This document shows, in pieces, positions 2,328 to 47,882 of a stretch of DNA of 64,000 nucleotides. This DNA is from Escherichia phage JY01, in sequence record OR995200.1, one strand, 5' to 3'. Below the pieces are notes generated by a model that saw nothing but the letters and a program-made list of their open reading frames with translations, searched no databases and was not told the origin of the DNA. Each line of letters begins with the position of its first letter. Position 1 is the first letter of the stretch. A program made the position numbers and the translations under genes.

Positions 2328-5024
2328 TCAGCCAAACAGGAAGTCTAACGAAGCTTTTTCTTCATAGTCCATACCAGCCGATTCACACATGCCTGCAAGC
2401 GGTTTAACAAACGATTTTTGGAACAAAGTTGAGTAGTCAATCCAAGACAGTACGTCAGAACGAATTTCTTTTGGAAGTTCTGTACCCGACGGCCAAGCAA
2501 TGCATTTGTCACCAAATGGATTTCCTTCACGCAATGGAAGAACCATTACTTTATTTCCATCCAAAATTGGAGCTACACCTAAACCGCTAACAGCTCGACG
2601 ATAAGTTAGCACACCACGAATATGGAACGGACATTTAAATCCTGGCCAACCTTTATCATCATATTTCGCTATATCGTTCGCAGTTTTTACTTCAGCAATA
2701 ACTTTATAGTCAAGTTGACGATATTCTTTCTCGAAGTTCTTGTAATATTCTTGGACAGACTCTTCACCTTCCTGAAGAATACGACGGATACTTTCTTCAA
2801 GAGCTTCTTGGACCGCTTTAGGCGTTGAACTTTGCTGAGTTTCCATACCCATGATTTTTAGATGCGGTTCAGCAAATCGCTTATCTTCCATATCATAAAC
2901 GTTCAGAGCATAACGTTTTTTCGCTTTCCAAAATCCACCAACACCCTTTGAACCAAGTGGAGGGCAAGAAATAGCTTCACGGTCCATATGCATCAGATGC
3001 TCGCGGTTATTCATATAATCACATAACTCACGATATGCAACATCAATCATAGGTTCCATCTTTTTCTTACCGAACTGATTCATGAATTCAACTAAATCGT
3101 TCTGCTCTTTGAATCGGTCAAGACCAACTTTTTCAATAACTTTATCTACACAAACATATACCGAATCAGTATCACCTGCTGCGATGAAATCTTCGCCATT
3201 AGTTCCACATACTTTATTCAGATACTCATTAATTTTACGAGCAATCCACTGAATACCGACTTGACCAAAAATTGTAATAGCAGTAGCATTTCGCAAATCA
3301 TAGTAGCGGAAATGAATATTACCAAGAGCACCGTAAAGGCTGTTAATAAGAATTTTACGGTTCAGCTGATTTGTATTAGCAAGTGTAGCCGCTTTTTCAC
3401 ATTCTTCAATCAAACTATTGAGAACAGATTCAGTATAATTCGATAGTTCATTTAAGAAATCATCACTGAACTTAACATATCGTTTAACTTCAGGTTTAGT
3501 TGAACAAGACCCTGCGCCTTTCATAATAATCTTTTTAATAGCTTCGGCATTCATTTCTTCAGCGAACATTTTCTTTTTCCAATCTTTACGCTGGAAAAAT
3601 ACTTTAGCGATTTCCTTTGGAATGATACCTTCTTGATGCTTATCATACATCCATCCATTCGGAGAACAAGAATATTCATCACTCGGTTTAGGAGCTGTTC
3701 CTGCGATATATTCATGAATTGGATGAACTTTAAACTGACCACGAATAGTCTCAGGACTAATGTTAACCTGACGAATAATGCTCGGATACAGAGACGTCAA
3801 GTCAAAACTCATAATATATCGACGAGCAATTGGTTTAGGTTCAAATACAAATGCACCCGGAAAACTTTGTTTAACGTGCGAACCTTGTTGAGGAATAACC
3901 TTATGTTCACCTTTCAATGAGTTAAAAATAATAGCATCCCAAGTTTTAATAGGACTCATTACACCAGAAAAAGGCATTTTAGCATAATAAGACATACTTA
4001 AAACTAGATCGATAAACCCGCGAATTTTATCAATTGCTTGAACTGATTCTACGTCAATGATGTTATAACTAATGTATCGTTGATGATTAGTCTCACGAAG
4101 TTTATTAATAGGACCGTCGTATGGTAATTTACCTTTTTTGGTTTCATGCTGAGCAACTGATTCCAAAGAGAATGACGGCAAATTAGTAAATGCGAATTTC
4201 TTATACAAATCTAAATAATCAAGAATAGATACGCCATCAATAGAATAAATTTCTTTGCTACCGTACATATTTTGGATAAGTTTAGATTTTACTCGACCGA
4301 TTGGAGAGAAGCGTTTCATACTGCGTTCACCAAGAACCATTTTAACACGATTCATGATATACGGAACGTCAAATCCCTCAATATTCCAACCAGTAAAAAT
4401 AGCAGGTCGTTTCTGTTCCCAAAGATTAATATATTCCATGAGCATATCACGCTCATTATCGAATGGCATATAAATTACTCGGTCAAGAATTTCTTGAGGA
4501 ACTTCATCACCACCTTCACAGTCAAGCTTAGCAGCTAACTTTGCATCCCATTTTGATACTGAACCGTACATTGAATTCAAAAGGTCGAAAACATAAAAAC
4601 GATCATCAATTGAATCGTAATGAGTGATAGCATCAATTTCATATTCAGCTTTCATTGGGTCAGGAAATTTATCACCAGTAACCTCAATGTCACAGTTAGC
4701 TACACGAACAAATTTTCGGTCATAAACAATTTCTGAACCATATGTATCACTGATATAAGCGAGTTTAAAATCGTTCATACCGAGAGCTTCGAGACCGATG
4801 TCTTCCATTCGTTTCATCCAATCTCGAGCATCTTTCATTGATGGAAATTTTTGAGGAGCACAGTTTTTACCATAGATGTCTTTGTACTTTGACTCTTCCT
4901 TACAATGTCTAAACATAGTTGGAAGATATTCTACTTCACGAGTACGTTCCTTTCCGTTTTCATCAATATAACGTTCAACAATGTTATTTCCGACTGTTTC
5001 AATAGAGATATAAAATTCTTTCAT
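2328..5024 (-). CDS. 43: DNA polymerase (family B, with 3-5 exonuclease)
   Basis: 898 aa ORF; sequence matches T4 gp43 as recalled, including the DTDS polymerase motif. Confidence 0.95.
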   Translation of the reverse strand: MKEFYISIETVGNNIVERYIDENGKERTREVEYLPTMFRHCKEESKYKDIYGKNCAPQKFPSMKDARDWMKRMEDIGLEALGMNDFKLAYISDTYGSEIVYDRKFVRVANCDIEVTGDKFPDPMKAEYEIDAITHYDSIDDRFYVFDLLNSMYGSVSKWDAKLAAKLDCEGGDEVPQEILDRVIYMPFDNERDMLMEYINLWEQKRPAIFTGWNIEGFDVPYIMNRVKMVLGERSMKRFSPIGRVKSKLIQNMYGSKEIYSIDGVSILDYLDLYKKFAFTNLPSFSLESVAQHETKKGKLPYDGPINKLRETNHQRYISYNIIDVESVQAIDKIRGFIDLVLSMSYYAKMPFSGVMSPIKTWDAIIFNSLKGEHKVIPQQGSHVKQSFPGAFVFEPKPIARRYIMSFDLTSLYPSIIRQVNISPETIRGQFKVHPIHEYIAGTAPKPSDEYSCSPNGWMYDKHQEGIIPKEIAKVFFQRKDWKKKMFAEEMNAEAIKKIIMKGAGSCSTKPEVKRYVKFSDDFLNELSNYTESVLNSLIEECEKAATLANTNQLNRKILINSLYGALGNIHFRYYDLRNATAITIFGQVGIQWIARKINEYLNKVCGTNGEDFIAAGDTDSVYVCVDKVIEKVGLDRFKEQNDLVEFMNQFGKKKMEPMIDVAYRELCDYMNNREHLMHMDREAISCPPLGSKGVGGFWKAKKRYALNVYDMEDKRFAEPHLKIMGMETQQSSTPKAVQEALEESIRRILQEGEESVQEYYKNFEKEYRQLDYKVIAEVKTANDIAKYDDKGWPGFKCPFHIRGVLTYRRAVSGLGVAPILDGNKVMVLPLREGNPFGDKCIAWPSGTELPKEIRSDVLSWIDYSTLFQKSFVKPLAGMCESAGMDYEEKASLDFLFG

Positions 5025-13450: not shown

Positions 13451-13657
13451 TCATAACTGCCACCATTTTTTGACTTGATAAGAATCAACCCACACTTTCA
13501 TATTAGGGTCTGCTCTTACAATAGGAGGATTAACTTCTTTAATTGAACTATCATGGTATTCTTTTTCAGAAATTTTCACACAAAGATGACCATTCAAAGA
13601 TTCAGTAAATCCTGCATTAATTTTAAGACGCTTGAATTTTACATGTGTAAGCATCAA
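13451..13657 (-). CDS. Hypothetical small protein
   Basis: 68 aa ORF, overlaps upstream ORF end. Confidence 0.3.
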   Translation of the reverse strand: MMLTHVKFKRLKINAGFTESLNGHLCVKISEKEYHDSSIKEVNPPIVRADPNMKVWVDSYQVKKWWQL

Positions 13658-13940
13658 TCATATCCTCAATCTGCGATCTAGTAGTCTTCCAAAGAATACT
13701 AATAAGTTCATCGTTATATGGCTGTTTTAGAATATCCCGACTTTTCTTGATAGCATATTCGTATTGAGCAAAATTATTATTTTCAGCTGCAATCTGAGCG
13801 TGCTTATAAAGACGATTCAGTTCGCGTTTGTTTTTAGACAATAACTTATTTGCTTTTCTTTCTGCTTCAAGACGGTTCTTTTCTTCAATAGAAGAAATAA
13901 GCTTTTCCACTTCATCATTAATTTCGGGTTTATCAGTCAT
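13623..13940 (-). CDS. Hypothetical protein
   Basis: 105 aa ORF. Confidence 0.45.
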   Translation of the reverse strand: MTDKPEINDEVEKLISSIEEKNRLEAERKANKLLSKNKRELNRLYKHAQIAAENNNFAQYEYAIKKSRDILKQPYNDELISILWKTTRSQIEDMIDAYTCKIQAS

Positions 13941-13941
13941 A

Positions 13942-14160
13942 TTATTTCTCTAATATAAAATAAAAATCATCATCTGTTAAATGATACCGATAGTTTAATT
14001 CTACACCATTAGATTTAAAAGCGGTATCATACGGATTTTCTGGATCAATATCAATGTCAAGAGCTAAAACTTCCCTGAGATACATTTTAAGTAAATAGGG
14101 AATAGCTTCAACTTCAGGTATTTCTTCCAAGAATCCGGAGAGGTTAATCGTTAGCCTCAT
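13942..14160 (-). CDS. Hypothetical protein
   Basis: 72 aa ORF immediately downstream of gene 55. Confidence 0.45.
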
Positions 14161-44610: not shown

Positions 44611-44700
44611 GCAGGGAGGGGAAATCAAAGGATAGGATAATATATTATAAAGGGTAGAAACTAAATGATGTCTAGAGAGGCCTGGAAAGGCCTAGATACC

Positions 44701-44728
44701 AAAAAGCCCCAACCTTTCGGCTAGGGCT
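44701..44728 (-). terminator. Rho-independent terminator (GAAA loop) after internal-protein-like gene
   Basis: RNA-sense AGCCCUAGCC-GAAA-GGUUGGGGCU followed by UUUUU. Confidence 0.6.
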
Positions 44729-44735
44729 AAGAATG

Positions 44736-45209
44736 TTATTTGATTTGTTTAGCAGACCAAATGCGGTCTTTAATAATTTTTTGGATATCTTCAACATACT
44801 CAAGAGAGTGAGCATGTGGGTTATCTTTGAAACTATAAGCACGAGCTAGTTTTTGGCCTTCAGTTTTGATTACTAAAAGCTCTTTAAGGATAGCTTCATA
44901 TTTGGAGATAATTCCTTTAACAATATTTTTCTCTTGTGCGACTTTAGGATCTGCTTTAGGAGCAGGTTTACCCGAAGCCTTTGCAAAAGCAGCGCCAGTA
45001 GCAACTAAACTTTTCCAGGCCATACTAACTGCATTTCCCGTAAATCCTTCCGCTTTCATGTCGCGTGCGAACTGGAATCGTGATTCATCAGAAGCATCTT
45101 TGTAAGAATATTTACCCGCTGCAATGGCTGCTTTTGCGACAGCTTGAATTTCGGTGCTAGATGCTTCATTTAACACCGCTTCATTTAAAAATTGAGTATA
45201 TGATTTCAT
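44736..45209 (-). CDS. Internal-protein-like protein with capsid targeting sequence
   Basis: N-terminus MKSYTQFLNE followed by A; Ala/Lys-rich; late promoter TATAAATA upstream. Confidence 0.5.
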   Translation of the reverse strand: MKSYTQFLNEAVLNEASSTEIQAVAKAAIAAGKYSYKDASDESRFQFARDMKAEGFTGNAVSMAWKSLVATGAAFAKASGKPAPKADPKVAQEKNIVKGIISKYEAILKELLVIKTEGQKLARAYSFKDNPHAHSLEYVEDIQKIIKDRIWSAKQIK

Positions 45210-45249: not shown

Positions 45250-45257
45250 TATTTATA
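45250..45257 (-). promoter_or_regulatory. Late promoter (TATAAATA) upstream of internal-protein-like gene
   Basis: RC of tatttata gives TATAAATA about 40 nt upstream of ATG at 45209. Confidence 0.5.
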
Positions 45258-45259
45258 CC

Positions 45260-45285
45260 AAAAAGCCCCAACCTTTCGGTCGGGG
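45260..45285 (-). terminator. Rho-independent terminator (GAAA loop) after RNA gene cluster
   Basis: RNA-sense CCCCGACC-GAAA-GGUUGGGG followed by CUUUUU. Confidence 0.6.
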
Positions 45286-45290
45286 CTAAG

Positions 45291-45596
45291 CCTTGCGGCA
45301 ACCTTGTCGGGGTTCCACCTGCTAAGGCAAGTGTTTGTACGAAACGCCGGGATTCGAACCCGGTTATTAAGCAGTTGACGCTACTCAATATTTTTAAAAG
45401 GCCATATCTCGACCATATCCGAACGTTCCGTCAAAAACGCTACTCGGCTTACGGCAAAGATATTTCCTCGAATCGATAATTCGGTGCGCCGTTTCTGCTG
45501 TGATGTAAGAGGGCATCAATAAACGCAAAGATTATTAACGCAATTCCTTACTCAGGGAACATCAGTCCGACGACTTACCGGTAGCGACCCGGTTTC
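45291..45596 (-). ncRNA. Candidate small stable RNA region with tRNA-like T-arm
   Basis: No ORF; perfect T-arm-like hairpin CCGGG-TTCGAAT-CCCGG (RNA sense) at 45349-45365; bounded by terminator-like hairpin at 45260-45285. Confidence 0.3.
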
Positions 45597-45947
45597 TTAA
45601 TATTCTTTTAAAGCATCAATCTGTTTACGGCGTTCACGCCATAAATCAATTGCTTCATACGCGGATTCAACATTTCGAATTGGACGGCATTTATATAAAG
45701 ATTTGTGATTTTGATATTGCGTAGATAACGGAATTTTATCTAAAAGGTCTTTACGTTCAAAGTATTCGTAACCATCTAAGCCAAATGAACGATTTTTGAG
45801 AAATTGCCAATGACCAAATTCGTTTTGAATATAAATATAATCCGCATGTTGATAAAGTAAATTAATTTCACGAAATGAGATATGTTTTTCATATTCATTG
45901 AAGTAAAATGTTAAATCATGAACTACTAAATAAACATTACCTTTCAT
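45597..45947 (-). CDS. Hypothetical protein embedded in RNA gene cluster
   Basis: 116 aa ORF between candidate stable RNA region and tRNA-Arg; no nuclease motif seen. Confidence 0.45.
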   Translation of the reverse strand: MKGNVYLVVHDLTFYFNEYEKHISFREINLLYQHADYIYIQNEFGHWQFLKNRSFGLDGYEYFERKDLLDKIPLSTQYQNHKSLYKCRPIRNVESAYEAIDLWRERRKQIDALKEY

Positions 45948-45965
45948 ATTTTCCTCACTTATAAT

Positions 45966-46041
45966 TGGTCGAGGCAGTAGGGATCGAACCTACGACCTAG
46001 GACTTAGAAGGTCCTTGCTCTTCCTTCTGAGCTATGCCCCG
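45966..46041 (-). tRNA. tRNA-Arg (anticodon UCU)
   Basis: Manual cloverleaf: acceptor 7 bp, D-stem GCTC/GAGC, anticodon loop CUUCUAA, T-loop, CCA encoded. Confidence 0.8.
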
Positions 46042-46045
46042 TAAT

Positions 46046-46121
46046 TGGGGTGACCGATGGGAGTCGAACCCATGACTACGAGAATCACAATCTCGAGTTC
46101 TACCAACTGAACTACGGCCAC
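46046..46121 (-). tRNA. tRNA-His (anticodon GUG)
   Basis: Manual cloverleaf; anticodon loop UUGUGAU, discriminator C73, CCA encoded. Confidence 0.7.
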
Positions 46122-46235
46122 ATTAATACCTACTCCAACAATCAAGATGTCTTCACACGAAATTAAGAGAAGAGTGATCAGTTCAACCCCTATAATCGCG
46201 TCAAGTAGATATTAATGTGACAGTTGTCACAAATT

Positions 46236-46310
46236 TGGCGGACGTGATAGGATTCGAACCTATAACCAATCGCTTAACAGGCGATCGCTCTGCCATTGAG
46301 CTACACATCC
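46236..46310 (-). tRNA. tRNA-Asn (anticodon GUU)
   Basis: Manual cloverleaf; anticodon loop CUGUUAA, discriminator G73, CCA encoded. Confidence 0.7.
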
Positions 46311-46314
46311 AAAT

Positions 46315-46401
46315 TGGTGGGGAGTGATGGAGTCGAACCACCCGAGTCGCAATGACAATGAATTTACAGTCCACACCGCTACCTCTACGGGATAACTCCC
46401 C
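46315..46401 (-). tRNA. tRNA-Tyr (anticodon GUA), long variable arm
   Basis: 87 nt; anticodon loop CUGUAAA; acceptor GGGGAGU/ACUCCCC. Confidence 0.65.
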
Positions 46402-46414
46402 TTAATTCATAATT

Positions 46415-46489
46415 TGGTGGCCCTGGGTGGAATTGAACCACCATCTGGCGATTATGAGTCGCTTGCTTGAACCTTCCAGCTACAGGGCC
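46415..46489 (-). tRNA. tRNA with CAU anticodon (Ile-lysidine or Met)
   Basis: Manual cloverleaf; anticodon loop CUCAUAA; CCA encoded. Confidence 0.7.
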
Positions 46490-46490
46490 T

Positions 46491-46566
46491 TGGTGCTGAT
46501 TGACGGAATCGAACCGCCGACCTTCTCATTACAAGTGAGTTGCTCTACCTACTGAGCTAAATCAGC
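46491..46566 (-). tRNA. tRNA-Thr (anticodon UGU)
   Basis: Manual cloverleaf; anticodon loop CUUGUAA. Confidence 0.75.
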
Positions 46567-46571
46567 AAAAC

Positions 46572-46661
46572 TGGCGGAGGTGATAGGATTCGAACCTATG
46601 AATCGCCGGAGCGACTGCCGGTTTTCAAGACCGGTGCATTCAACCACTCTGCCACACCTCC
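46572..46661 (-). tRNA. tRNA-Ser (anticodon UGA), long variable arm
   Basis: 90 nt; anticodon stem CCGGU/ACCGG, loop CUUGAAA. Confidence 0.75.
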
Positions 46662-46663
46662 AG

Positions 46664-46737
46664 TCTCCATACAAGGATTTGAACCTTGGACCTCCTGATC
46701 CCAAATCAGGCGCTCTACCAAACTGAGCTACACGGAG
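46664..46737 (-). tRNA. tRNA-Pro (anticodon UGG), CCA not encoded
   Basis: Anticodon stem CCUGA/UCAGG, loop UUUGGGA; T-loop UUCAAAU. Confidence 0.75.
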
Positions 46738-46747
46738 TAAATTAAAT

Positions 46748-46821
<74 letters not shown>

Positions 46822-46826
46822 AAATT

Positions 46827-46913
46827 TGGTGCGAGAAGTGGGACTCGAACCCACAAGGAAATCATTCCGCAGCATTTTAAGTGCTGTGCCTTTACCAATT
46901 TGACCATTCTCGC
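46827..46913 (-). tRNA. tRNA-Leu (anticodon UAA), long variable arm
   Basis: 87 nt; anticodon stem CAGCA/UGCUG, loop CUUAAAA. Confidence 0.8.
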
Positions 46914-46914
46914 G

Positions 46915-46987
46915 CTGGGAATAAAGGACTCGAACCTTTGCATCCTGGAATCAAAATCCAGTGCCTTACCAACTTGGCTAATTCCCA
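46915..46987 (-). tRNA. tRNA-Gln (anticodon UUG), CCA not encoded
   Basis: Anticodon stem CUGGA/UCCAG, loop UUUUGAU; acceptor complement exact. Confidence 0.75.
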
Positions 46988-47073
46988 ATTATTAACAAAG
47001 GCTCTCAAGCAAGAACCCTTGATGATAGAGGGTATTAATCAGTGCGGTATGAGTTAATAATAACAAATAATTC

Positions 47074-47598
47074 TTAAAGCAAATTAAACATTTTAACGGT
47101 CGGCAAAACAATTTCTTCTTCTATATAAGAGTATTTAACACTCTCAACTACACGCAAGAAATCATAGTCATAATATTCAGAAGCATGACCAAGAATATCA
47201 ATAAGGCCTTCAAATATCTTATTACCATTCACAAAGAATAAGTCAAATACACGTTCTTCATCTTCTTCGGATTTATTACCAAGGTCAACTTCTATATCAA
47301 AGACCTTTTTAATGAATTCTGGATAAAGTTGTTCTGAGAACAGTCCTTCAACCAAGTATTCATAAATAAAAAGCGATTGCTCGCTGAACAAGCCATTACC
47401 ACAATAACGTTCAGCTTTAGTACTAGAATGTCTGCTTTTAAACTTCTTTAAAAGATATTGGAACTGTAAGATTTCATGCTCTTCTACGCCAAACAGTGTT
47501 TTAGTTTTATAGTTGTCACCATCATTTTCCCAGGTAGTGACATCAATTACGTAACCCTGCGGAATTGTAGTACCTAAACAAATATTCATTTTCACCAC
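47074..47598 (-). CDS. Hypothetical protein
   Basis: 174 aa ORF. Confidence 0.45.
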   Translation of the reverse strand: MVKMNICLGTTIPQGYVIDVTTWENDGDNYKTKTLFGVEEHEILQFQYLLKKFKSRHSSTKAERYCGNGLFSEQSLFIYEYLVEGLFSEQLYPEFIKKVFDIEVDLGNKSEEDEERVFDLFFVNGNKIFEGLIDILGHASEYYDYDFLRVVESVKYSYIEEEIVLPTVKMFNLL

Positions 47599-47882
47599 GC
47601 TGCATTAATATAAGTATATTTAATACATTCAAGACTTAAAGGATTCTTGAAAATATCATATTCAAGAGGACCTTTTTCTGTTTCAATAAAGAAATCAAAA
47701 TTTACTGTATTAAATTTACGGTCTTCCTTCACTAATTTAACCTGAGAAGATGAACGGTCAATGTAAACCTTTTCAACTTCAAAACATGTTAAAATGCCAT
47801 AATCATCAATCAAGGCTTTAGCTGCTTCTTGATCATATTTATATCCATTTTCAATGGACGATACTTTAGCATAAAGAATCAT
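47592..47882 (-). CDS. Hypothetical protein
   Basis: 96 aa ORF. Confidence 0.45.
   Translation of the reverse strand: MILYAKVSSIENGYKYDQEAAKALIDDYGILTCFEVEKVYIDRSSSQVKLVKEDRKFNTVNFDFFIETEKGPLEYDIFKNPLSLECIKYTYINAAW

Follow-up and report, generated by a model that had tools for sequence, protein, structure and literature searches.

Phage T4 carries segB, a gene for a GIY-YIG homing endonuclease, in its transfer RNA (tRNA) region. The tRNA region of phage T2L was sequenced by Brok-Volchanskaya et al. (Nucleic Acids Research (NAR) 2008; EMBL AJ880101), and open reading frames (ORFs) within it were named trna.1 and trna.2 (PMC2330249). When T4 is crossed with T2L, homing by SegB replaces about 1250 base pairs (bp), including the trna.2 ORF, and 99.6% of the progeny carry segB while 0.4% carry the trna.1 or trna.2 ORFs (PMC2330249). 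Here we analysed a 64,000-nucleotide stretch of DNA from Escherichia phage JY01 (OR995200.1), called the window below, to which all coordinates refer unless stated otherwise. It contains a 116-residue ORF (45597–45947, minus strand) that follows tRNA-Arg. An original prediction, which correctly assigned segB to the tRNA region of T4, had placed this ORF where T4 has its homing endonuclease, and had suggested that it may be either a cargo gene at a recombination hotspot or a decayed endonuclease. We conclude that the window ORF is the same gene as the T2L 'trna.2 ORF'. Very probably, it is a dispensable gene that has long been part of the tRNA operon of T4-like phages and encodes a soluble, phage-specific accessory protein, which is expressed from a precursor RNA and has no detectable nuclease domain.

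The window phage is a Tequatrovirus. An 851-bp query spanning the locus matched 770 phage records, nearly all of them Tequatrovirus and relatives, and was 100% identical to slur02, slur04, slur11, slur13, vB_EcoM-Sa45lw, teqhal and AndreasVesalius (BASEL Bas42). An apparent 504-bp insertion in slur02 and slur04 proved to be a BLAST split arising from a 36-bp terminator/late-promoter repeat (see below); slur04 and the window are collinear here. The two primers published for the T2L trna.2 ORF, #24 and #25 (PMC2330249), match 45917–45945 and 45605–45629 with one mismatch each, and these two sites are the two ends of the window ORF. The T2 genome has a 116-residue ORF after tRNA-Arg, whose protein is 86% identical to that of the window, and a separate 133-residue ORF between tRNA-Ser and tRNA-Met. 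The position is also the same, 18 nucleotides (nt) past tRNA-Arg and directly before the stable RNA gene rnaD, and this arrangement of tRNA-Arg, ORF and rnaD–rnaC is common to T2, RB68, Aplg8, Bas42, IME537 and Shf125875. In Tequatrovirus and Mosigvirus, tblastn matches to the ORF were 100% to 67% identical over at least 97% of its length, the Bas42 copy (bas42_0249) being 100% identical. Other names for the gene are RB32ORF133c, RB69ORF150c, ar1_139 and, as a PHROG family, phrog_3355 (function unknown), to which residues 1–115 align on profile positions 1–116 of 117 with E = 6.7e-52. The ORF was therefore already described in T2L in 2008, and it is present as a hypothetical protein in hundreds of genomes; we found no mention of RB69ORF150c in the literature, and no functional study of the ORF.

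The window differs from T2 in having tRNA-His and a 114-nt spacer, and in lacking the T2 'trna.1 ORF'. The ORF itself departs from the T2 allele mainly in residues 18–27. Seven of the 15–16 amino-acid differences between the window allele and those of T2 and RB68 fall in this patch (45867–45896), which forms the loop before the first helix in a structural model (see below), and there the T2 allele resembles Mosigvirus. This clustering suggests either allele mosaicism through recombination or local diversifying selection. Despite its name, the T4 gene trna.2 (NP_049746) is not a homologue (hhalign probability 0.07%) and the match is a collision of names only; the real trna.2 homologue in the window is a 96-residue ORF at 47592–47882. 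A homologue of established function in the T4 tRNA region, which would have refuted the original prediction, was not found: T4 lacks the gene, and none of the homologues has a known function.

The ORF is a genuine protein-coding gene under purifying selection. It is the sole ORF called at its position, with an ATG start and a TAA stop, and encodes a protein of 14.4 kDa with an isoelectric point (pI) of about 7. The 18-nt spacer between the CCA end of tRNA-Arg and the ATG (ATTATAAGTGAGGAAAAT) contains a Shine-Dalgarno sequence, GAGG, read from the sequence at 45953–45956 (minus strand), 5 nt before the ATG. The frame lies in a stop-free run of 130 codons (45600–45989) in DNA of only 29% G+C; as about 8% of random codons would be stops, we estimate that such a run would arise by chance with a probability of about 2e-5 per position. 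A full-length frame (at least 80% of the length) is present in 419 of the 425 phage records in which tblastn found the ORF. Within Tequatrovirus the ratio of non-synonymous to synonymous substitution (dN/dS, Nei–Gojobori) is 0.03–0.23, and against Mosigvirus it is about 0.08, with synonymous sites saturated. All close homologues begin with MKGN, and the Shine-Dalgarno sequence is conserved. The long open run, the conservation of the full length and the low dN/dS together indicate that the ORF is more than a chance frame.

The ORF lies inside a tRNA operon. The cluster (45966–46987, minus strand; ARAGORN and Rfam) comprises 11 tRNAs (Gln, Leu, Gly, Pro, Ser, Thr, Met/Ile2, Tyr, Asn, His and Arg), all co-oriented with the ORF. 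The last of these, tRNA-Arg(UCU), has an encoded CCA end and lies directly upstream of the ORF (45966–46041, minus strand; ARAGORN, and 66.1 bits to the Rfam tRNA model). On the other side lie the genes for two stable RNAs on the same strand, mapped from the annotations of T4, RB68 and Aplg8: rnaD (species 2; 45483–45600, minus strand, 98–100% identity) and rnaC (species 1; 45338–45476, minus strand, 98.6–100% identity). Rfam reported tRNAs only at the locus, and the database holds no rnaC or rnaD family. T4 rnaD nt 4–119 map to 45597–45483 at 99% identity, and Aplg8 rnaD is 100% identical over 45601–45483. By equivalence with T4, rnaD nt 1 (45600) is the last base of the final Tyr codon of the ORF, and its TAA (45599–45597) is rnaD nt 2–4; the RB68 annotation likewise shows rnaD overlapping the end of the ORF by 4 nt. 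The RNA fold of the ORF end together with rnaD was no more stable than shuffled sequences (z = −1.1). The placement of the ORF between tRNA-Arg and a stable-RNA region was thus literally correct, as shown by the ORF call, by ARAGORN and Rfam, and by the mapping of rnaD and rnaC.

The equation of this site with that of the T4 endonuclease did not hold. In T4 the order is tRNA-Ile, segB, tRNA-Arg, rnaD, rnaC, with 1 nt between tRNA-Arg and rnaD, and T6 has the same order; both lack the ORF. SegB is thus encoded upstream of tRNA-Arg, whereas the window ORF lies downstream of it, and IME537 has both, in the order tRNA-Met, segB, tRNA-Arg, 116-residue ORF, rnaD/rnaC. RB68 and Bas42 have a homing endonuclease gene between tRNA-Gly and tRNA-Ser and keep the ORF. 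In Bas37 the endonuclease gene adjoins tRNA-Leu, and a 351-bp ORF is kept 18 nt past tRNA-Arg. No homing endonuclease gene is present within the tRNA cluster of the window (45966–46987). The two genes, segB and the ORF, are not alternatives to each other. A contiguous T4-type segment of rnaD, tRNA-Arg and segB (at least 80% of its length) occurs in 127 records, compared to 412–425 for the ORF-type arrangement. On one side of the ORF, T4 and the window become homologous again exactly at the 5' end of rnaD, and on the other side within the tRNA-Thr/Ser part of the cluster. These limits agree with the 2008 paper, according to which the stretch of T2L from tRNA-Ser to the stable RNA genes is replaced when segB homes (PMC2330249).

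The endonuclease slot itself is variable: T4, T6 and IME537 have it before tRNA-Arg, RB68 and Bas42 between tRNA-Gly and tRNA-Ser, and Bas37 next to tRNA-Leu. With each insertion a neighbouring tRNA is lost or replaced. In coordinates of the extracted loci the endonuclease genes span 2754–3419, 1362–1970, 1998–2663 and 4069–4677, and that of Bas37 spans 143893–144510 (supplement coordinates).

Across the 425 records, the ORF is 100% to 83% identical to the window in Tequatrovirus (including T2, RB68, AR1 and HY01), 66–70% in Mosigvirus, 43% in Winklervirus Kc304 and 29% in Mosugukvirus PM2. At least eight Tevenvirinae lineages have a homologue within the tRNA cluster or at its end, among them Tequatrovirus, Mosigvirus, Winklervirus, Mosugukvirus, Kagamiyamavirus, Karamvirus and one Klebsiella T4-like phage. 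In Mosigvirus Shf125875, which is of RB69 type and has only two tRNAs, tRNA-Arg is followed by the homologue and then by rnaD and rnaC. The homologue comes after the last tRNA (Thr) in Kc304, after tRNA-Trp and one small ORF in PM2, and between two tRNA sub-clusters in Kagamiyamavirus EcS1. Weak tblastn matches between tRNA sub-clusters were also found in Klebsiella phage RCIP0102 and in Karamvirus EnC07, where the ORF lies 22 nt past tRNA-Met; the family profile scored these two ORFs at 33.8 and 39.6 bits, respectively. The same profile gave no match in the T4 locus. The wider family is supported by Foldseek against BFVD, which returned uncharacterised proteins of Serratia X20, EcS1, Klebsiella KPV15, Enterobacter CIP9, Erwinia Cronus, Shigella SP18, Bp7 and Vibrio nt-1. 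A word-indexed protein search gave 13 clusters, and HMMER over 1.84 billion representatives gave eight proteins, all phage-like except one. That one, a 650-residue eukaryote-like tandem-repeat protein in which a 26-residue stretch was matched ten times, is spurious.

Small ORFs are found between the tRNAs of other phages too (T2L trna.1, and in Kc304, EcS1 and PM2). Like the window ORF they are short and co-oriented with the tRNAs, and are presumably translated from the same precursor, but they are unrelated in sequence, and only the family of the window ORF is present in every lineage examined. As the same gene lies in the tRNA cluster of at least eight lineages, it appears to have been part of the Tevenvirinae tRNA operon for a long time, and to be missing from the T4/T6 lineage, rather than to be a recent insertion.

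How might the gene be expressed? The stretch from tRNA-Arg to the ATG contains no promoter-like site. In T4, transcription of the tRNA cluster starts at a middle promoter just upstream (PMC2330249, citing Broida and Abelson 1985). A motif scan of the window found a putative middle promoter at 47057–47083 (minus strand), consisting of a MotA box, TTTGCTTTA, at 47083–47075 and, after a 12-nt spacer, TATTAT at 47062–47057, about 70 nt upstream of tRNA-Gln; from the MotA box to tRNA-Gln the window is exactly the T4 sequence. At the other end, an intrinsic terminator with a 10-bp hairpin (7 G–C) and a T run follows rnaC (45264–45287, minus strand), and a terminator is annotated in the same place in Aplg8. 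Most likely, judging from this layout, the ORF lacks its own promoter, and its product, a small accessory protein, is made by translation of the tRNA-operon precursor. Transcription would begin at the MotA-dependent middle promoter before tRNA-Gln and run through the ORF to the terminator past rnaC, giving a precursor of about 1.8 kb from which the 11 tRNAs, rnaD and rnaC would also be released. Ribosomes would load at the GAGG site of the ORF itself, in the 18-nt spacer. As the stop codon is contained in rnaD nt 1–4, the cleavage that makes the 5' end of rnaD would sever the message just before the stop, and the yield of protein would then depend on whether translation keeps ahead of RNA processing.

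An arrangement of this kind, in which translation competes with processing, was pointed out by the 2008 authors for segB and tRNA-Arg in T4 (PMC2330249). The two genes are alike in lying inside a tRNA-operon precursor with no nearby promoter, and in that the stop codon overlaps, or is severed at, the site where the 5' end of the next stable RNA is processed (tRNA-Arg for segB, rnaD for the ORF). They differ in having no relationship in sequence or fold and in occupying different slots, and also in that segB is sporadic and mobile, while the position of the ORF is conserved across genera.

The protein showed no sign of a nuclease. A Pfam search with 13 family members at E ≤ 10 found no GIY-YIG (PF01541), HNH or other nuclease family, and aligning the family profile with T4 SegB by hhalign gave a probability of 0.2% over 12 columns; the absence of a GIY-YIG or HNH signature, which the original prediction had noted by eye, is thereby borne out. 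NCBIfam and PADLOC scans also gave no match. The protein is rich in aromatic residues (18%), has one Cys and no metal-binding motif, and its homologues range in pI from 5.8 to 7.8. Invariant residues include N42, W47, F49, K51, R53, Y62, F63, W103 and R107, and H46, D36, D67 and P73 are near-invariant. The best AlphaFold model, from 13 sequences, has a predicted local distance difference test score (pLDDT) of 72 and a predicted template modelling score (pTM) of 0.64. It is a single compact alpha/beta unit with four N-terminal strands and one helix, an ill-defined middle and a long C-terminal helix (residues 93–115). A structure search of the PDB with this model found no nuclease or other fold neighbour. 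The sole profile match among PDB sequences, a fragment of a cyclic GMP-dependent kinase (E = 0.004, 20 bits), was judged to be due to chance.

The ORF is dispensable, as shown by T4 and T6, which lack it, by the viable T4 x T2L recombinants that lose it, and by its positional orthologue in Bas37, bas37_0245, which is non-essential. This gene was classed as such in a transposon study, HIDEN-SEQ, with 33 of its 38 TA sites hit (bioRxiv 10.1101/2025.11.20.689424). It is 351 bp long, begins 18 nt past tRNA-Arg and shares with the window the same geometry of tRNA-His, 114-nt gap and tRNA-Asn; the TA-site counts of its neighbouring tRNAs and of a 474-bp ORF also match the window. Comparison of K-12 with CFT073, CFE299, CFE303 and CFE331 gave log2 fold changes for bas37_0245 of −0.20, −0.30, −0.31 and −0.02, respectively, with an adjusted p of 1 in all four comparisons (bioRxiv 10.1101/2025.11.20.689424).

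Several points weigh against the picture of a dispensable, precursor-expressed accessory protein with a role in the host. bas37_0245 was equated with the ORF by its position, its length and the TA-site counts of its neighbours, and none of the four clinical E. coli isolates revealed a conditional fitness effect of the gene. Transcription, translation and the 5' end of rnaD in this phage are carried over from T4. Confidence in the structural model is moderate, with pLDDT below 50 for residues 55–59 and 73–85, so that a known fold could have escaped the search. Finally, the idea of host interaction or counter-defence is a guess.

That guess is nevertheless a reasonable one, since phage tRNAs at this locus are counter-defence cargo, to which a counter-defence or host-interaction role of the ORF would be linked: a 2026 paper reported that the tRNA-Tyr of T6 overcomes Septu (PMC13096335). 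We tentatively propose that the protein might be a niche host-interaction factor that binds a partner rather than catalysing a reaction and serves counter-defence or host takeover, and we regard this as possible but short of probable. In a rival reading the protein would be a counter-defence factor linked to the tRNA cluster, inhibiting or decoying a tRNA-targeting immune system while the phage tRNAs replace the host tRNAs that were destroyed. Its position inside tRNA clusters in every lineage examined would fit such a role, as would the action of phage tRNAs from the same locus against Septu, which cleaves tRNA-Tyr (PMC13096335). So would its accessory and patchy spread (about 412–425 records against 127 with the T4-type junction), the variable patch at residues 18–27 that separates alleles, and its resemblance to many anti-defence proteins in being small, restricted to phages and free of known domains. 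However, it has no homology to known systems (PADLOC, Pfam), T4 and T6 manage without it, and bas37_0245 was neutral in K-12 and four uropathogenic isolates in an experiment in which other Bas37 genes scored. As unrelated small ORFs also occur among the tRNAs, location may have no functional meaning. On balance we consider this rival reading rather unlikely.

A role in RNA metabolism is less convincing. A factor that binds or chaperones the tRNA precursor or rnaD/rnaC, or modulates their processing, would explain why the gene is kept in the tRNA operon across genera and adjoins rnaD/rnaC in Tequatrovirus and Mosigvirus, and the invariant K51, R53 and R107, the near-invariant H46 and the conserved aromatic residues could form an RNA-binding surface. 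In contrast, the pI is neutral across the family, no RNA-binding domain or fold was found, and T4 and T6 make the same rnaD, rnaC and tRNAs without the ORF. Furthermore, other genera have no rnaD, and their rnaC-like RNAs are not adjacent to the ORF. We therefore hold such a factor to be improbable. We likewise hold to be improbable a combined scheme in which output would be gated by RNA processing (the message being the spacer that separates tRNA-Arg from rnaD, with its stop codon in the mature rnaD, so that only precursors not yet cleaved would be translated to full length, later ones being non-stop messages) and the product would be a counter-defence protein, or one that binds tRNA or rnaD, with a fold not seen before and kept across the Tevenvirinae.

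The preferred reading of an old resident also has to be weighed against a mobile origin, in which the ORF would be cargo recently acquired at a recombination hotspot made by endonucleases, with no ancestral link to the locus. The hotspot itself is real, as the original prediction supposed: SegB cleaves in tRNA genes and drives the replacement of a segment that includes the ORF in T4 x T2L crosses (PMC2330249), the position of homing endonuclease genes and the tRNA content vary among close relatives, and homology between T4 and the window breaks precisely at the 5' end of rnaD. The description as cargo is doubtful, however, for a gene held in the tRNA cluster by at least eight Tevenvirinae lineages, with 28–72% identity outside Tequatrovirus, and with copies in Karamvirus and the Klebsiella phage that are recognised by profile only. 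It follows tRNA-Arg in both Tequatrovirus and Mosigvirus, even in RB69-type phages with two tRNAs, and its divergence follows phage taxonomy, which argues for vertical descent and for loss in the T4/T6 lineage. Recent acquisition is thus quite improbable.

A decayed or divergent homing endonuclease has only context in its favour, in that such genes are common in T-even tRNA clusters. GIY-YIG homing endonucleases (SegA–G, I-TevI) have a catalytic domain with conserved Tyr, Arg and Glu, and a two-domain architecture of about 200–250 residues with a C-terminal NUMOD-type DNA-binding region; SegB has 221 residues, and the 116-residue protein does not have this architecture. Nor does it resemble HNH (Mob-type) or other beta-beta-alpha-metal enzymes, in which Cys or His often serve as metal ligands, as it has no Pfam match, a single Cys, no metal motif and no match to that fold. 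Homing endonuclease genes are present sporadically and show decay when they are not maintained, whereas the ORF is present in at least eight lineages, is kept at full length under purifying selection (dN/dS 0.03–0.23) and coexists with intact endonuclease genes in the same cluster. Together with the empty profile and fold searches, these comparisons appear to refute effectively the idea of a decayed endonuclease, and we consider any such ancestry very unlikely. Least tenable of all is a chance ORF in spacer RNA between tRNA-Arg and rnaD: the Aplg8 annotators did leave the ORF unannotated, but this reading is refuted by the pattern of substitution (dN/dS well below 1, with synonymous saturation against Mosigvirus), and the 130-codon run at 29% G+C, the shared MKGN start, the kept Shine-Dalgarno sequence and a family recognisable down to 28% identity leave it next to no probability.

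One further family assignment was considered for the protein. Pfam gave a sub-threshold match to DUF2654 (14.8 bits against a threshold of 25, E = 0.035), and six of the 13 family members gave sub-threshold matches, the best with E = 0.003. The window encodes a clear DUF2654 member elsewhere, a protein of 108 residues (13626–13949, minus strand; E = 7e-43), which is unrelated to the ORF. The likeness is confined to a 27-residue stretch (REINLLYQHADYIYIQNEF compared to RELNRLYKHAQIAAENNNF). An hhalign comparison with the DUF2654 protein of the window gave a probability of 9.6% and left the remainder unaligned, and we therefore rejected membership and attribute the match to chance or to a short shared motif.

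Some other features of the locus were recorded. The tRNA with anticodon CAT (46415–46489, minus strand) was called Met by ARAGORN and is annotated as tRNA-Ile (codon ATA) in BASEL Bas37 and Bas42; it is likely a lysidine-modified Ile2 tRNA, and it sits where T4 has tRNA-Ile. The 114-nt spacer between tRNA-His and tRNA-Asn (46122–46235, minus strand) has no tRNA, Rfam or ORF assignment. Both it and tRNA-His are missing from T2 and RB68, and are common to Bas37 and Bas42. A 174-residue ORF without a Pfam match (47074–47598, minus strand) lies between the trna.2 homologue (47592–47882) and tRNA-Gln, and the middle promoter of the tRNA operon falls at its 3' end. It is present in T2, Mosigvirus (RB69ORF151c type) and Bas42, but not in T4 or T6.

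On the far side of rnaC, a repeat of about 36 bp (44696–44731 and 45255–45290, minus strand) brackets a 157-residue ORF (44736–45209). The repeat comprises a terminator hairpin and T run, and the upstream copy also contains a late-promoter sequence, TATAAATA. RB68, IME537, Bas37 and Bas42 carry the 157-residue ORF, which is missing from T4 and T6 and has the look of a cassette gained or lost through recombination between the flanking repeats. Elsewhere in the Tevenvirinae, unannotated rnaC-like sequences occur inside tRNA clusters, mostly directly 5' of tRNA-Trp. In coordinates of the extracted loci these lie at 1507–1663 in EcS1, 1371–1533 in Kc304, 2167–2333 in RCIP0102 and 2592–2669 in PM2. 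We found rnaD in Tequatrovirus and Mosigvirus only.

Taken together, the feature is real and correctly placed, but it is an ordinary one that had been described before; we reject the nuclease readings, and the case for cargo is weakened. As a discovery it carries little weight, because the gene was mapped in 2008, is widely annotated as hypothetical and belongs to a PHROG of unknown function. The outcome is instead a corrective one, in that the ORF lies outside the slot of segB and is not the relic of a nuclease, and in that T4 and T6 are the exceptions and not the rule. The ORF is among the few protein genes that stay inside the tRNA operon across T4-like genera, and its stop codon is common to a protein gene and to a stable RNA, rnaD. 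If a function is found for it, the gene could help to explain the co-expression of proteins with phage tRNAs, whose role as counter-defence cargo is now recognised.

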